From contig DKOA01000046.1 in NCBI GenBank assembly GCA_002469895.1, positions 19,129 to 83,128 on the forward strand: a DNA stretch of 64,000 nt, written 5' to 3'. The DNA comes from Opitutia bacterium UBA7374 (GTDB lineage: Bacteria; Verrucomicrobiota; Verrucomicrobiia; Opitutales; Coraliomargaritaceae). Shown in pieces: positions 35,890 to 43,301 of the stretch. Numbering within the stretch: the first letter of the stretch is position 1; every line of letters begins with the position of its first letter. A program made the position numbers and the translations under genes. The notes below the pieces were generated by a model. That model was not told where the DNA came from and did not search any database. It saw only the letters and a list, made by a program, of their open reading frames with translations.

Positions 35890-36900
35890 ATGGTTGGTCC
35901 TGCCATTTTTCGGTCTCTTTGCTTGGTTTTCTTGCTTGCTACGAACGTCGTTGCGTTGGTTTGGCCGACCCCGAATCCGGCATTTCAGCAGGGGCGATCG
36001 GCAAAAGACTTTATACAGCCAACCGCTTCTGGCATCCTTAAATCCGGTTTGTTTGGTTGTGTGCGCAATGGAGGCAGTCGTTTTCATGAGGGTATCGATC
36101 TTTTCCCATTGAAGCGGGATCGAACTGGCGAGGCCGCAGATCCGGTCTATAGTATACTTCCCGGGCGGGTGGTTCATATTAGTGGGATTGCCGGCCACAG
36201 CAGCTACGGACGTTATGTCGTGGTCGAGCACGATGCAGAAAAGCCGGTCTTTTTAACTCTTTATTCTCACCTTTCCCGTATCGCAGAGGGCGTTGCGCCC
36301 GGCTCCCGGGTGAAGTCCGGAACGATCCTGGGGATCATGGGGCGTTCCGCCGCGGGATACACGATACCTAAGTCCCGCGCCCATTTGCATTTTGAGATCG
36401 CATTTCAACTGACCGATGATTTTCAGGATTGGTATGATCGGCAGGCCTTCAAGGAACCGAACCGTCACGGAAACTGGAATGGAATGAATCTGGTGGGCAT
36501 TGATCCGCTTGCATTTTATGAAGCCATGCATGGGCGAAAGGAGGGTGGGATGAATGCACACCTGAAGGCGCTACCGGTGGTCGCCCGCATCCGTGTTTTT
36601 ACTGGTAAGACGCCCAACTTTGTGACGCGTCACCCAGCACTGGTCACGCGGTCTTTTCAGGAGGCAGCGGTCACGGCTTGGGATATTGCCTTCACGAAGT
36701 ATGGATTGCCCGTTCAATGGACGCCCCGTTTCGCTGACGAAGGACTTACCGGCCGCGCCGGAGATGTACAAGTGCTGGCTTACCAGCAACGGTTGCTAGA
36801 AGGACAGAGCTGTAAGCGTGTTTTGGATATGGGTGCATCCGGTCCGCGCATCTCGAGAGGTACGCTCGATGACTTGAAGAAGCTTTTTGGCTTTCGCTGA
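35890..36900 (+). CDS. M23 family metallopeptidase
   Basis: HEGIDL, YSHLS and HLHFEI motifs (HxxxD ... HxH of LytM/M23), with an N-terminal signal/anchor. Confidence 0.8.
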   Translation: MVGPAIFRSLCLVFLLATNVVALVWPTPNPAFQQGRSAKDFIQPTASGILKSGLFGCVRNGGSRFHEGIDLFPLKRDRTGEAADPVYSILPGRVVHISGIAGHSSYGRYVVVEHDAEKPVFLTLYSHLSRIAEGVAPGSRVKSGTILGIMGRSAAGYTIPKSRAHLHFEIAFQLTDDFQDWYDRQAFKEPNRHGNWNGMNLVGIDPLAFYEAMHGRKEGGMNAHLKALPVVARIRVFTGKTPNFVTRHPALVTRSFQEAAVTAWDIAFTKYGLPVQWTPRFADEGLTGRAGDVQVLAYQQRLLEGQSCKRVLDMGASGPRISRGTLDDLKKLFGFR

Positions 36901-37684: not shown

Positions 37685-39511
37685 CTATTCCTGAAAGCGC
37701 TTGCTCCAGTCGCTCCAGCTGATCTCGGTCAAGGTCGGTTTGCCGGAGGGAGCGGTATGCGGCACCCGGCAGTTGAGCAATTGCGCTGCGAGCACTTCAA
37801 CCGCTTCATCGCTCTGTGGAAGCGCATCCCGGCTTACATATTTGCAGGCTAATTGCTTCAGGGTCTCACGGTGTAGTGTTTTTTCGCCCTGCCGGTCCCC
37901 GCGCTGTCTGATTTGGTCGATCAGGTCGCGAATAAAATTTTCTGCCTCTGCATCCGGCAGCCAGGCAGGAATGGACTCGATGCGGAAGAAATTTGTCCCG
38001 AAGGGTTCAACTACGAATCCGTTGGCTTGGAGCAATTCTGTTTGTTTAGCGAGCTGCTCAGCGGCAACCGGTTCCATGTCTATCGGGATTGGAAGGAGTA
38101 GTGGCTGGCTGGCTGCACTGCCTTGGCTAAAGTCGTCTTCAATTTGTTCGTAGCGCACTCGCTGGATGGCATGTTGTAACTGGAGCATGACCAGACCCTC
38201 GGGTGTTTGAAATAGTGCATAGCGCATCTGAAAGCGAGCCAGTAGCTTCCACCCGGTGATTATGGGAGCGGATGCGGATATGGGCTTATGTGCCGCACTT
38301 GATTCGGTCGCTGAGCTTGTTTTTTTCGGTAGTGGTGGGGTGGACGTTGTTCTCTGTGAAGTGACGGCGTCTGTAGATGCGGGCACCTCCTTCGGCAGGG
38401 GTCTGGGTAGGCTGGGGTGCGAAGAAGGGAGAGTGGATAAATCGGGGAGTGGGGGTCTCTCTTTTCCTTGCGGCGTATCACTGGGTGCCAGCTTCTGCAT
38501 GGGCTCGAGCGGGAGCGCAGGAGCGATCGCTTTTTCTACGGATTCCAGAATAAATCGACGCACTCTGCTTTCATCGCGAAAGCGAACTTCCCGCTTGGCC
38601 GGATGCACGTTAACATCGACCTGAGCTGGGTCGATTTGAAGAAAGAGAAAGGCGGGCGGGTAGCGCCCTTTCTGGATCCTTCCATGGTAGGCATCGAGTA
38701 CGGCAAAGCCAAGTGTCCGGTTGTCTACGGGCCGGTTATTGACCAGAGTAACGAGCTCGCGGCGGGTGGCCCTGCCCACTCCCGGCTTGGCGGTGAGCCC
38801 ACCTAAGCGAAGCCCGGTCTTTGGGTCTACCGCATCCACCGGCAGGAGGTTGTCTGCCAGACCCTTGCCCCAGATTTCTGCGATACGCCCCGGCAAGGCA
38901 TTACAGGCCGGCGAACGAAAAAGAGTGCGACCATTTTCGATCAGGCTAAACGCGATATTCGGATGCGCTACAGCAAAGAGACGTGTGGTGTAGGCGATAT
39001 GGGCACTTTCCGTGGCATCGGTCTTGAGGAATTTTCGTCGAGCTGGCACGGAGTTAAAGAGATGGGCGACTTCGATCTTCGTACCAACCGGCATGCCGCA
39101 ATCTTTCTTATCAAGCAGCTTACCCCCGTTGATTCTGACCTCGGTGCCATGCTCACGGTCTTGCCCACGTGTCTGTAGGGTAAATCGACTGACGGAGGCA
39201 ATCGACGGCAGCGCTTCTCCGCGAAAGCCAAAGCTTTGAATGGAATCCAGATCCGCGGCCTCGCGTATCTTGCTGGTGGCATGCCGCTCGAGACAAAGCA
39301 GAGCCTCGTCGGGGGCCATCCCCTTGCCATTGTCTTCGACGCGGATGTAGGACTTTCCTCCATTACGGAACTCGACCTCGATTCGTGTCGCACCAGCATC
39401 AAGGCTGTTCTCTACCAGTTCTTTAACGACCGCAACCGGCCTCTCGATGACCTCACCGGCTGCTATCTGATTGGCTACCAAATCTGGTAGAACTCTTATA
39501 TCTCCGAACAT
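37685..39511 (-). CDS. mutL: DNA mismatch repair protein MutL
   Basis: GHKL ATPase motifs [24 protein letters not shown] and GFRGEAL, plus the C-terminal dimerisation region. Confidence 0.95.
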
Positions 39512-39960
39512 TGTTTATACAATTATATCTGTTTTGGATAAGTCCAAACCGAAAATTGCAGAAGGGATGTGCCTCGATTGCCAGCCGCCCACAGAACTAA
39601 TCTGGCTTCTTCAGTGGATTGGACGGCCTCTTTCAAGGCTGTCCTTTCTTTGCTGAAAAAACAAAAAATGGGCAATTTTTTTTAACTTTTTCGATAAATT
39701 TGCACGGCTCGTTCATTGGTAAAGTTATGAACATTTTAATTACTTCATTATGAAGGACTTTAGGAGTTATTCACAAATCTCATAAGTTATTAACAATCAT
39801 AGGTTTATGTAGATTCATTGTTGACATGCTGAAATTTGATTTCATTTTAATTACATACCTTCGGGTATATGATCTTTGACAGAAGCGATAAATTTCAACT
39901 GCGCACTGTGTGTTGTTGAAAATATTATCTCGATAATGTTCGATTTTATCGAACCAATGG

Positions 39961-40840
39961 TCGGGTAGCACTGGCGCGCCCGGCCCCTGCAATAGCTACA
40001 CCTCGGTGTTGAACTTGCAGGCAGATGTCACCAACTTCCACGCAGGGTTCGTTAGCCCTGCGAGTTTAACGATGCGGGGGTTTGGCGGTGAGCACAGGCC
40101 CGAGCTAATAATAACGCCCGGGAGAGAACCAGATTGCTCACCGAGTCACGCATGTAAGAATGGGTTCTACATTCTTGCGCTGCGAACACAGTCGGTCTCA
40201 GACCGGTAGTTGTTACTGTGAGCCAGTACGGAGATCATGATCCGGCGGAAAGACGAAATAGCTCCGCCCGAAACTGAGGGTTTCGCAACCTGACAGATGA
40301 AAACAGATCCTGACTTCGTGAGTTGAGTGCGAAGTGTTGAGACAGCGGGCGGCCGCTGGCGGGCACAGCGCACAATAACACTCGAGTCGCGGGAGGTCTT
40401 AACCGGTCGTCCGCCTGAGAAAAAAATGCAACCTGCGGGATAAGAGACAAGACCCGTCGTCTAAGGCAAACGACTGCTGCAAATGCAGTGCCGTCCTTAG
40501 ACTAAGACGATCCACATAACTTCTCAGAAGTGTGGAAACCTCGGGTTCGTACTGCACTTGTTTGCAAGCAAGCACAGTATGGGCAAAGAAGTCTCACCCT
40601 AAGAGCTCCAGCGGTGACGCTGGAAGCAGGTCTCGCTGCGGGACCAAATGGTTGGAACGTCTGCACAACCAGCGTAGCGTCGGGGAACTGGCAGCCATCT
40701 CATTCGACGGATGGGAGGGCGCCTAATGTCAGTGCATCGAGGAAAGAGAGTGTGGCGAGCTCCCACTCCTCACCTTTTTCGCTAATCATAGCGATAAAAG
40801 TTCTTTAAAACCCATAGGTTTTCACCTGTGGGTTTTTTTG
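39961..40840 (+). ncRNA. candidate large structured ncRNA, class unassigned (5' end uncertain)
   Basis: GC-rich stretch with no ORF over 92 codons in any frame and non-protein-like translations. I hand-folded many helices, listed in the first finding. There is a colinear long-range pairing between 39968-39981 and 40717-40735. A GTGA tetraloop hairpin sits at 40608-40623. The element ends at an intrinsic terminator, and no plus-strand gene follows it. Confidence 0.45.
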
Positions 40841-41155
40841 TGCCCCCACGACAATCGGTCTCTTTCCTTGCTCTGCAATAGATGAGTTGCGGCAAACGGG
40901 TGCTACCATCGGAAATGCTATTCCTGAAGCGACTATGATGCAGTCATCATCCAAAGAGATGCCATAATAGTTGAAAGAGATATACGCTTCACAATGAACG
41001 AATTCAAGGAACCAAGAGTTGGCTCTACGATAATGAGAGTACTGGAAGGGAAAGCGTATATCACAGTGACTTTTGAAGAGACGGATGCCTTCAAAAATAG
41101 GGCAAGTGGCAGTCACATTAGAAAAGTCGATACTTGCGGATTCATCTGTAGGCAC
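40805..41155 (-). CDS. doubtful small Cys-containing ORF (116 aa)
   Basis: An ORF exists in a low-GC stretch, but its last 11 codons are encoded by the terminator hairpin. An equally long ORF (40994-41344) lies on the other strand. No family recognised. Confidence 0.25.
   Translation of the reverse strand: MPTDESASIDFSNVTATCPIFEGIRLFKSHCDIRFPFQYSHYRRANSWFLEFVHCEAYISFNYYGISLDDDCIIVASGIAFPMVAPVCRNSSIAEQGKRPIVVGAQKNPQVKTYGF
40808..40839 (+). terminator. rho-independent terminator (possibly bidirectional)
   Basis: Stem ACCCATAGG (40810-40818) / CCTGTGGGT (40825-40833, one G-U pair), 6-nt loop, then a T7 run (40833-39). The upstream side carries AAAA, so the reverse strand also reads hairpin plus TTTT. 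Confidence 0.65.
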
Positions 41156-41352
41156 CCGCTTTTACCGCTTCAAGGTGGCGGAATCATTCTCTCGGTCATG
41201 ATGTATCCTCACATCTGCCTAAATAACCCTGCCCTTGGATATTCTACAATCCCTCAGGCGCTTGAGAAGGGGCTCCAATTCCATATGAGGGGAGCAATTG
41301 GTCAGACTTTAGGGAGCCAAGTAGAGGCTTCCGGGCCGAAATAATCATTCTA

Positions 41353-42060
41353 CTATTTTCTTCGCCAGAAAACGTAGCCCAGGACGGCCCCGCCTAAAAG
41401 GAGTGCATAAGTCGTTGATTCGGGGACTGTTGAAAGCGTAACAGACACATCGTCAACTCGAATATCGTGAGTGCTGTTGGTTGAAATCACTCCATCTCCT
41501 ACAAAGCTCATAAATTTTATATGAAGTAAACCATCCTCAATGATCACAGGAGTAGGGTTCGTGAAAATTCTTTGGTTAACCCAACCACTGGCACCATTAT
41601 TACTTGTAGAGCTGTAGCTAAGTTCAGTCCAAACAGAGTCAACACTTGCATCACTGACAGCAAAGTCAGAGCCTGAAGTGTAGTAAACTTTAAAGACGTC
41701 ACTATCCATACCGGAAAAATCTTTAATCGCCTCACTGGTAGCAAAACCAACAGAGAGATAAGCACCGTAAGATGCTGTATTAGCATTAATGTTATAGATA
41801 AGAAAACCTTCCGTATTGTCTGTAAGAAATACGTTATTACCTCCAGTTGCATCAGGATATTGGCCTGCAGAACCACCTGAAGTCCTAACGTCTGCATCTT
41901 CGATTGAGAGATATTCAACTGAGTTATTATTATCTAATCCGGTATCATTCTCTAAAGAAAGTCTGCTGTCGCTGTCTCCAAAACCTTCTGTGAGGATAGT
42001 AGTAAAAGCAGCAAATGAACTAAGGGTAGTCGCTAAAAAAAATAGTAGGTATAATTTCAC
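41353..42060 (-). CDS. PEP-CTERM sorting-domain protein
   Basis: Signal peptide MKLYLLFFLATTLSSFAA and C-terminal VPESTTYALLLGGAVLGYVFWRRK, which reads as a PEP-like motif, a TM helix and a basic tail. Confidence 0.8.
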   Translation of the reverse strand: MKLYLLFFLATTLSSFAAFTTILTEGFGDSDSRLSLENDTGLDNNNSVEYLSIEDADVRTSGGSAGQYPDATGGNNVFLTDNTEGFLIYNINANTASYGAYLSVGFATSEAIKDFSGMDSDVFKVYYTSGSDFAVSDASVDSVWTELSYSSTSNNGASGWVNQRIFTNPTPVIIEDGLLHIKFMSFVGDGVISTNSTHDIRVDDVSVTLSTVPESTTYALLLGGAVLGYVFWRRK

Positions 42061-42683: not shown

Positions 42684-43301
42684 ATGTTTACAGGAATCGT
42701 AGAAGAGACGGGTATTGTGCGTTCGTTTACTGAGCAGGAGCAGGCTTGGCGTTTGGTTTTGGATGCGGCTGTGGTGACCAAGGGCCTGCAACTGGGCGAC
42801 AGTGTGGCGGTGAATGGCTGTTGCTTGACAGTGGTTGATTTTGCCGAGGATCGTTTAGAATTTGATCTGCTGGCACAAAGCGTACGTTTGACATCAATTG
42901 ATGGCATCGGGCCGGGGGGACGGGTCAACTTGGAGCGGGCACTCCTCCCCACGACGCGAATGGGTGGGCATTTTGTTTCGGGTCATGTGGACGGTACAGG
43001 CGCGATCGCCACGATTGAGCCGCGGGGCAAAGATGTGTACCTGCGAATAACGCCGGACCCGGAAATGTTGCGTTATGTTGTGGCCAAGGGCTGTGTCGCG
43101 GTCGACGGGATTTCTCTGACAGTGGCAGAACTCGACGATACGGGGTTCAGTATCTGGCTTATCCCGCATACTCTGGAAGTAACCAACCTCGGGGATAAGC
43201 GAGCGGGGGATCGGGTCAATCTGGAGTTTGACTTGCTGGCGAAGTATGTGGAGCGGCTTCTGGGGAAGGACGATGACTCGTCTTTAACTTGGATTGGCTA
43301 G
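42684..43301 (+). CDS. ribE: riboflavin synthase alpha subunit
   Basis: [10 protein letters not shown] start and a duplicated lumazine-binding repeat ([13 protein letters not shown] / [12 protein letters not shown]). Confidence 0.9.

Follow-up and report, generated by a model that had tools for sequence, protein, structure and literature searches.

The GC-rich, helix-dense element at 39961–40840 of the window (the 64,000-nucleotide stretch of contig DKOA01000046.1 analysed here) is a gene for MISL RNA (Rfam RF03079), an identification to which we assign a probability of about 95%. MISL RNA is a catalogued family of ∼0.75–0.95 kb structured non-coding RNAs of Verrucomicrobiota. The fuller account, in which this is a divergent MISL copy from a marine member of the Puniceicoccaceae with its own transcription unit, also appears highly probable to us when taken as a whole; that the RNA acts in trans is a less certain part of it.

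Results

The element matches MISL RNA from end to end

When the whole window was searched with cmscan against Rfam 15, RF03079 matched the plus strand at 332.9 bits (E = 9.4e-99; gathering score 274.6 bits), the match covering model positions 1–751 of 751 (Table 1). At gathering thresholds the scan returned three matches in the window, MISL RNA and two tRNAs. A search of 39500–41400 at E ≤ 5 gave, among other Rfam families, just four chance-level matches to small unrelated families, and no match to GOLLD, ROOL, OLE, HEARO, raiA, RNase P, tmRNA or group I/II introns. The first-pass annotation had described the element as a large stand-alone structured non-coding RNA that could not be assigned to a known class. 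The first part of this description is upheld by the full-model match, the covarying helices and the terminator; the second is overturned by a full-length RF03079 match above the gathering score. Because MISL is already an Rfam family, the element is a real RNA, not a new RNA class. Its start, previously set at 39961, also moves, as the family model begins earlier, at 39931.

The cmscan alignment, when transcribed, reproduced the window sequence exactly. The window is identical to the RF03079 consensus at 389 of 751 positions (52%), and at 228 of the 291 highly conserved ones. Both partners are present for 163 of the 177 model pairs, and 147 of these 163 are standard pairs; with respect to the consensus, 69 pairs are unchanged, nine carry one-sided changes, 69 carry compensatory double changes and 16 are broken, counts that lean towards the structure because the covariance model fitted the alignment to it.

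The composition and folding of the element agree with this identification of a non-coding RNA. GC content rises from 0.30 at 39700–39899 to 0.535 at 39900–40099 and then remains at 0.50–0.56 until ∼40800; the abrupt switch from AT-rich to GC-rich sequence reported near 39960 is real. The element is ORF-free, as had been stated: its longest ORF encodes 92 aa (40530–40808), each of the six frames contains 6–13 stop codons, and gene callers left the RNA stretch empty on each of four independent contigs. The RNA strand of 39931–40780 folds at −336 kcal/mol, as compared with −289 ± 5 kcal/mol in shuffles (z −8.9).

Table 1. Features of the MISL RNA gene in the window (window coordinates; all on the plus strand).
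Feature	Position	Strand	Basis or remark
Candidate −35 element, TTGACA	39821..39826	+	Putative; the L090 promoter region also has TTTATGTAGATT..TTGAC
Alternative candidate −10 element, TATGAT	39868..39873	+	Tentative; 5/6 match to TATAAT
Degenerate leader copy GATCTTTGACAGAAG of the motif AGUUCNUUGANAGAAC	39871..39885	+	12/14 positions of GTTCTTTGATAGAAC in L090
MISL RNA core (model 1–751)	39931..40763	+	cmscan, RF03079
Extra helix 39986–90/40017–21, enclosing hairpin 39996–40011	39986..40021	+	Absent from the cmscan structure line
Insertion, 25 nt, in the loop of helix 40086–95/40132–43	40097..40121	+	cmscan insert columns; not in consensus
Loop–loop pairing, GAACC 40126–30 with GGUUC 40163–67	40126..40167	+	Homolog covariation
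Insertion, 35 nt, at the tip of helix 40318–32/40368–85	40333..40367	+	cmscan insert columns
Most conserved block, GCAACCUG-N5-UAAGAG-N-C-N-AGACCCGU	40428..40457	+	Matches highly conserved Rfam positions
Long-range helix	40437–39/40597–99 and 40444–47/40592–95	+	Rfam structure; 100% paired in homologs
Pseudoknot, hairpin loop CGCUG 40634–38 with linker UAGCG 40675–79	40634..40679	+	Homolog covariation
Lineage-specific hairpin between model end and terminator	40774..40800	+	Predicted fold; outside the Rfam model
Intrinsic terminator, 13-bp hairpin then U-run	40807..40842	+	Fold −19.2 kcal/mol, z −5.6

The family helices covary among homologs

Homologs were retrieved from GTDB species genomes and from metagenomes with a degenerate 30-nt pattern drawn from the most conserved block, which gave 81 loci in genomes and 13 in metagenomes. 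Sixty-six complete genome copies were aligned by MAFFT L-INS-i with structure ignored and with the Rfam consensus sequence as a ruler. The structure was projected through the consensus row, the window row being locally misaligned in this first alignment (A1). Across the 66 homologs, 84.7% of cells pair, as compared with 34–42% when the 3′ partners are slid by 1–3 columns, and most helices contain several compensatory pairs. A second alignment (A2), likewise made without regard to structure, held 38 rows: the consensus, the window and 36 diverse homologs. Here 84.5% of cells were paired, versus 73.4 ± 0.3% in shuffles and 36–43% with slid partners; double changes occurred at 145 of 182 pairs, versus 93 ± 4 in shuffles; and the covariation score was 0.357, versus 0.164 in shuffles and 0.065–0.107 with slid partners. 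None of 500 shuffles reached the observed value in any of these three comparisons. The family helices thus covary.

The RNA is a string of ∼23 conserved helices joined by near-invariant unpaired linkers and accompanied by at least two tertiary pairings; in the Rfam structure of the family there is no overall closing helix. The long-range helix closes a junction of three hairpins (40460–40501, 40509–40540 and 40545–40584) and carries two compensatory changes in the window, G-C for A-U at 40438/40598 and A-U for G-C at 40447/40592. The 30-nt core pattern is present in the window, and because this block served as the search pattern, its invariance in A1 and A2 is partly built in. Other invariant linkers common to the window and the family are GCGUCGGGG and GGAAAGAG..GUGGCGA. 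Neither of the two insertions has a significant fold of its own; z is −0.6 for the 25-nt insertion, and the local hairpin predicted within the 35-nt insertion is not significant by itself.

All of the complementary segments that the first-pass annotation had picked out by eye are present in the sequence, and seven of its local helices are family helices, with one more receiving modest support. Those found in the Rfam structure include 40041–47/40056–62, 40154–61/40171–78, 40460–66/40495–501, 40473–77/40485–89 and the GNRA-capped helix 40608–13/40618–23. A proposed hairpin at 40512–23/40527–35 divides into a family helix, 40512–16/40531–35, and a lineage-specific extension, CTTC/GAAG at 40520–23/40527–30, which is 18% paired in homologs. 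The pairing suggested at 39986–92/40015–21 is retained as the five pairs of the extra helix in Table 1, for which support is modest: 90% of cells pair over the five pairs in 38 sequences and three pairs are double-changed, the window having G-C where homologs have C-G. Finally, CGCUA/UAGCG (40780–84/40789–93) does lie in a predicted hairpin, but one that is lineage-specific and outside the model.

Two further proposals did not survive comparison with the homologs or with chance. The long-range pairings 39968–73/40730–35 and 39976–81/40717–22, which had been thought to close a ∼770-nt domain, show no covariation; 68.4% of cells pair as compared with 68.8% in shuffles, and 360 of 500 shuffles score as high. 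The segments concerned belong instead to covarying local helices. Five homologs have a changed 3′ helix, GCAAUCGA/AUUGC or GCACACAG/GUGUGC, while their 5′ hairpin loop still reads GCUGG, and so the long-range pairing breaks. When the element is folded by itself, the minimum-energy structure does contain the closing pairings; on this point it misleads, and single-sequence folding reaches its limit. The other proposal was a repeated 8-mer taken as a motif, with a T-loop-like arrangement at one copy. Three repeated 8-mers are observed where 6.4 are expected, which is chance level. T-loop motifs have five-nucleotide loops that start with U and carry A in fifth place; UUCGUUAG, the loop sequence at the GGGUUCGU site (40045–52) of the window, and its consensus counterpart UUCGCG both lack this A, and the sequence does not suggest a T-loop-like reading.

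Tertiary pairings

All column pairs were scanned for stacks of complementary positions that the Rfam structure line does not include. The pseudoknot so detected, which joins model positions 640–644 with 676–680, pairs in 100% of cells across the 66 homologs, with A-U replaced by G-C in eight sequences, and all five of its pairs are standard in the window. Similarly, two neighbouring hairpin loops (GAAAC at model 162–166 and GUUUC at 198–202) pair in ∼95% of cells in the 66 homologs, among which both G-C and C-G variants occur; the window forms five pairs here, one with an A-U to C-G change, in a register that is 1 nt off the cmscan alignment. The flanks of a small hairpin at model 394–407 also pair. 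All these features may already be drawn in the published MISL consensus. Both sides of a candidate long-range pairing, GGUUGC/GCAACC (40208–13/40428–33), are almost invariant, one of them being fixed by the search pattern.

Ends of the transcript

A stem followed by a T-run had been called as an intrinsic terminator at 40808–39. This call is confirmed by the folding energy (Table 1) and by the homologs, which carry a hairpin at the same position: in 52 of 66 a strong hairpin (median −28 kcal/mol) ends ∼45 nt past the model end and leads into a T-rich tract, and among the other 14 those printed have the same hairpin with a weaker T tract. The hairpin that precedes the terminator in the window was not found in homologs.

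At the 5′ end, a near-invariant leader motif, (C)AGUUCNUUGANAGAAC, forms a short hairpin 55–80 nt upstream of the model start in every other lineage examined, marine ones included. In homologs it lies 6–7 nt after a −10-like hexamer accompanied by a TTGTCG or TTGACG −35 element; in the marine homolog L090, the sequence TTGACG-17 nt-TAGAGT precedes it. This conserved upstream leader indicates that the natural MISL transcript probably extends ∼80 nt further 5′ than RF03079. In the window the degenerate copy has a broken hairpin stem, and a search there for an intact leader hairpin found neither one nor any closer copy. The leader hairpin is not a defining feature of the curated MISL family; it is seen in homologs and lies outside the Rfam model.

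A sigma-70 promoter scan of the plus strand found nothing convincing. The candidate −35 element at 39821 lacks a convincing −10 partner, and the region in which a −10 element would be expected, 39846–39856, is hypervariable in 99%-identical relatives. The alternative −10 candidate is unchanged in close relatives; its −35 partner is weak, and the scan did not list it. Transcription would start between ∼39855 and 39931, from a promoter in the AT-rich spacer that separates the RNA from the divergently oriented mutL gene, and would end at the intrinsic terminator. The RNA forms its own transcription unit.

Host, distribution and constraint

By clustering at 90% identity, the window MutL groups with MutL of Puniceicoccaceae bacterium MED-G30, and the window RibE is identical to an entry from a Coraliomargarita sp. 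TMED73 MAG. Because of these two matches we place the host in Verrucomicrobiota, Opitutia, Puniceicoccales, and on sequence grounds we take it to be a marine member of the Puniceicoccaceae (Opitutia). Contigs with the same genes derive from Tara Oceans and other marine metagenomes. The 81 genome loci are nearly all from Verrucomicrobiota (Limisphaerales, Verrucomicrobiales, Pedosphaera and some Opitutae), and nearly every matching genome has a single MISL locus. Seventeen other loci that were scanned all contain MISL, at 359–607 bits, leaving the window copy with the lowest score of the 18.

In the metagenome scan, relatives of the window were either near-identical (98.7–99.9%) or distant marine MISL copies, and no intermediate relatives of the window lineage were found. 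Among the near-identical relatives there are four variable sites in the 850 nt of the RNA, as compared with 15 in 430 nt of upstream flank and ∼12, together with a 7-nt indel, in 620 nt downstream. Purifying selection thus acts more strongly on the RNA than on the sequence to either side.

Genomic context

The mutL gene occupies 37685–39511 on the minus strand (Pfam DNA_mis_repair, MutL_C and HATPase_c_3), with its start at 39511 as annotated before. The window neighbours of the RNA are housekeeping genes. Downstream lie a minus-strand gene of 235 aa, a minus-strand tRNA-Met gene and then ribE at 42684, 1.8 kb away; no credible plus-strand gene was found between the RNA and ribE. An ORF at 40994–41344 is frameshifted in a relative (L089).

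An association between mutL and MISL was considered and rejected: mutL, deoC, ribE and other window neighbours are absent beside MISL in homolog loci. The sole window neighbour to recur is an M23 peptidase gene, which is found upstream of MISL, almost always divergent, at 32 of the 65 loci with enough sequence. In the window this gene (35890–36900, plus strand) is 3 kb from the RNA, with deoC and mutL between. Downstream of MISL, cysK is present on the same strand at 25 of 55 loci and starts ∼70–130 nt past the terminator. No MISL match was found in collections of 50,697 phage and 72,556 plasmid records. Conserved synteny, single copy number and the lack of phage or plasmid matches fit a vertically inherited chromosomal gene rather than a mobile element.

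Discussion

Alternative explanations of the element

The identification of the element as MISL RNA leaves little room for the readings that its sequence might otherwise invite. A novel, unclassified class of large RNA, as favoured in the first-pass annotation, draws on its size, helix density and lack of a nearby partner gene, all of which resemble other orphan large RNAs, and on an identity to the MISL consensus of merely 52%. This reading is highly improbable in view of the RF03079 match, which spans the full model above a curated threshold, and of the invariant blocks, helices and two tertiary pairings that the window has in common with more than 90 homologs. Still less credible is a decayed protein-coding gene or pseudogene with a surviving GC content, even though the GC content of the element is similar to that of neighbouring genes and a gene caller reports a 116-aa ORF nearby. 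Stops interrupt all six frames, no gene is called over the RNA, substitutions are compensatory in helices rather than codon-periodic, and the stretch evolves more slowly than its flanks; the earlier judgement that this is not a decayed gene was sound.

The position of the terminator hairpin between the RNA and cysK, which follows closely on the same strand in many homologs, could suggest a very long cis-regulatory leader in which the terminator is a regulated attenuator for the downstream gene. We regard this as very unlikely. In the window a minus-strand gene and a tRNA gene come before ribE, so that the first-pass conclusion that the element is neither a leader nor a riboswitch holds; the cysK linkage is missing in more than half of the loci; and no bacterial riboswitch leader of such length (∼830 nt) and with ∼23 conserved helices is known to us. 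A cis effect on cysK in ∼45% of homologs is nevertheless possible for the family. An RNA linked to mobile elements or phages, of the same type as GOLLD, ROOL, HEARO/omega-RNA or group II introns, would be of similar size, and a tRNA-Met gene does lie 1.7 kb away. The prospect of such an origin is remote, given that the GOLLD, ROOL, HEARO and group II intron models have no match at E ≤ 5, that no reverse transcriptase, IscB, TnpB or phage gene is nearby, and that the locus is single-copy, conserved in synteny and unmatched in the phage and plasmid records.

How MISL RNA might act

The literature searched contained no description of a function for MISL RNA. The family was mentioned just as an Rfam example in the Ribonanza preprint, and the main text of the paper on 224 candidate RNA motifs does not name it (Weinberg et al., 2017). 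Any proposed mode of action therefore rests on analogy. By such analogy, we consider it fairly probable that MISL RNA acts in trans, in a structural or catalytic mode. This preference follows from the apparent possession of its own promoter and terminator with no same-strand downstream gene in the window, from the conserved unpaired linkers and pseudoknots, and from single-copy, syntenic, vertical inheritance. MISL RNA would then be a vertically inherited, housekeeping-type RNA acting through a compact, pseudoknotted tertiary fold, whether within a ribonucleoprotein, as its RNA component, or by working or assembling unaided, as other large ornate bacterial RNAs do. Regulation of a neighbouring gene is unlikely.

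Each specific activity within this trans-acting mode (ribonucleoprotein part, ribozyme or self-assembling RNA) is a guess by analogy and individually improbable. In one version, MISL would be an RNA-only homo-oligomer rather than a monomeric ribozyme or a protein-bound scaffold. OLE, ROOL and GOLLD, all three of the large ornate bacterial RNAs examined by cryo-EM, are reported to form homo-oligomers (PMC12286853). MISL is comparable to them in size, is likewise rich in conserved hairpin loops and lacks a helix that closes the whole structure; nevertheless, the conserved loops identified to date pair intramolecularly, and we regard the homo-oligomer as doubtful. Equally speculative is the broader suggestion that MISL may be a ribozyme or a self-assembling RNA-only complex with a housekeeping role specific to Verrucomicrobiota. 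Were this true, the Opitutia copy, the most divergent seen here, would define the functional core: the leader hairpin could be lost and 25 and 35 nt inserted, while the invariant linkers and the two tertiary pairings would be fixed.

Comparison with known RNAs

Like OLE, MISL is a large structured RNA encoded on the chromosome and rich in conserved unpaired nucleotides, and its size is within the range of OLE, GOLLD and ROOL. OLE adjoins oapA, whereas MISL has no conserved adjoining gene for a partner protein. OLE belongs, moreover, to extremophilic Firmicutes, another phylum, and there is no match between the two in sequence or structure. With GOLLD and ROOL the likeness is in size range and in a multi-helix ornate architecture. 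The biochemical roles of those two RNAs are unknown, and they often occur in prophages and next to tRNAs (PMC5737381). MISL, in contrast, is a chromosomal gene with conserved synteny and no counterpart in the phage and plasmid records searched, and the Rfam models of GOLLD and ROOL do not match it.

Within the MISL family itself, the window copy has the same helices, invariant linkers, two tertiary pairings, terminator position and phylum as other members. It differs in its low score (332.9 bits, versus 359–607), its 52% identity to the consensus, its 25- and 35-nt insertions and its degenerate 5′ leader hairpin; in the presence of mutL and deoC between the RNA and the M23 gene; and in its host, a member of the Puniceicoccaceae (Opitutia), whereas most matches come from Verrucomicrobiia. 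The window RNA is thus an unusually divergent member, from marine Opitutia, of a family already known, and its finding amounts to the correct rediscovery by eye of a catalogued orphan RNA. Its value is limited and comparative. The copy places MISL in abundant marine Puniceicoccaceae, and its very divergent sequence sharpens the conserved core of the RNA; the comparison with homologs suggests, in addition, that the curated RF03079 model may miss a conserved 5′ leader of ∼80 nt and a conserved terminator.

Leader and promoter

In MISL-bearing loci other than the window (L002-L081, L024, L086 and the marine homolog L090), a near-invariant motif, (C)AGTTCNTTGANAGAAC, forms a short hairpin 55–80 nt 5′ of the MISL model start. 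In all non-window MISL lineages examined it is preceded by a conserved promoter, TTGTCG/TTGACG–17 nt–TAAGAT/TAGAGT, and many homologs also share a conserved block, GTGAATAA..TGTGCATAAGAATTC, on the 5′ side of the −35 element. The motif lies outside RF03079, and by these sequence comparisons the curated model therefore seems to lack a 5′ leader of ∼80 nt. The window's own copy is degenerate (see table).

Between the candidate −35 element and this leader motif, contigs that are otherwise 99.5% identical differ by a cluster of substitutions; in the near-identical relative L083, an 11-nt stretch holds seven changes. It looks like a small replaced patch of spacer.

Further upstream, in the interval separating the AT-rich spacer from the start of mutL, stands a terminator-like hairpin that is preceded by no plus-strand gene. 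Its score against the sbrA model, 20 bits as against a gathering score of 45, is at chance level. Read on the opposite strand, the hairpin could be part of a long mutL 5′ UTR.

Features of the window in and around MISL
Feature	Position	Strand	Remarks
M23-family peptidase gene	35890-36900		deoC and mutL loosen its linkage to MISL
Terminator-like hairpin	39587-39653	+	GGACGGCC..GGCTGTCC, then T-rich tail
Substitution cluster	39846-39856		
Degenerate leader-motif copy	39871-39885		stem broken; no closer copy in window
Loop–loop contact	40126-40130 with 40163-40167		covariation in 66 homologs; kept in window
Loop–linker pseudoknot	40634-40638 with 40675-40679		covariation in 66 homologs; kept in window
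116-aa ORF	40994-41344	+	predicted by gene caller on public contigs
235-aa gene	41353-42060	−	weak PEP-CTERM match

Genomic neighbourhood

Among homologs, an M23-family peptidase gene lies 1–2.5 kb upstream of MISL, a linkage found at 32 of 65 loci and spanning two classes of Verrucomicrobiota. The gene is usually divergent from MISL, and a gene for a lipoprotein-like protein of ∼200 aa, with no Pfam match, usually precedes it. The linkage may have a functional basis or may simply reflect inherited gene order. Downstream, the 116-aa ORF has no match in Pfam, and in L089, a 98.7%-identical relative, a 7-nt insertion at 41282 shifts its frame; on both counts this ORF is probably not a gene. The stretch of ∼500 nt from the MISL terminator to the 235-aa gene is thereby left without explanation.

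Tertiary pairings and expanded copies

Both tertiary pairings are missing from the structure line that cmscan prints with the window's RF03079 match; the published consensus may or may not annotate them. The MISL copies of seven marine Verrucomicrobiales loci (L024, L086 and L094-L098) and of L026 measure 890–945 nt. They owe this length to sizeable structured insertions within the 5′ domain, and the scores of about 510 bits that these copies still attain, despite such insertions, indicate that the MISL family tolerates large expansions at defined sites.
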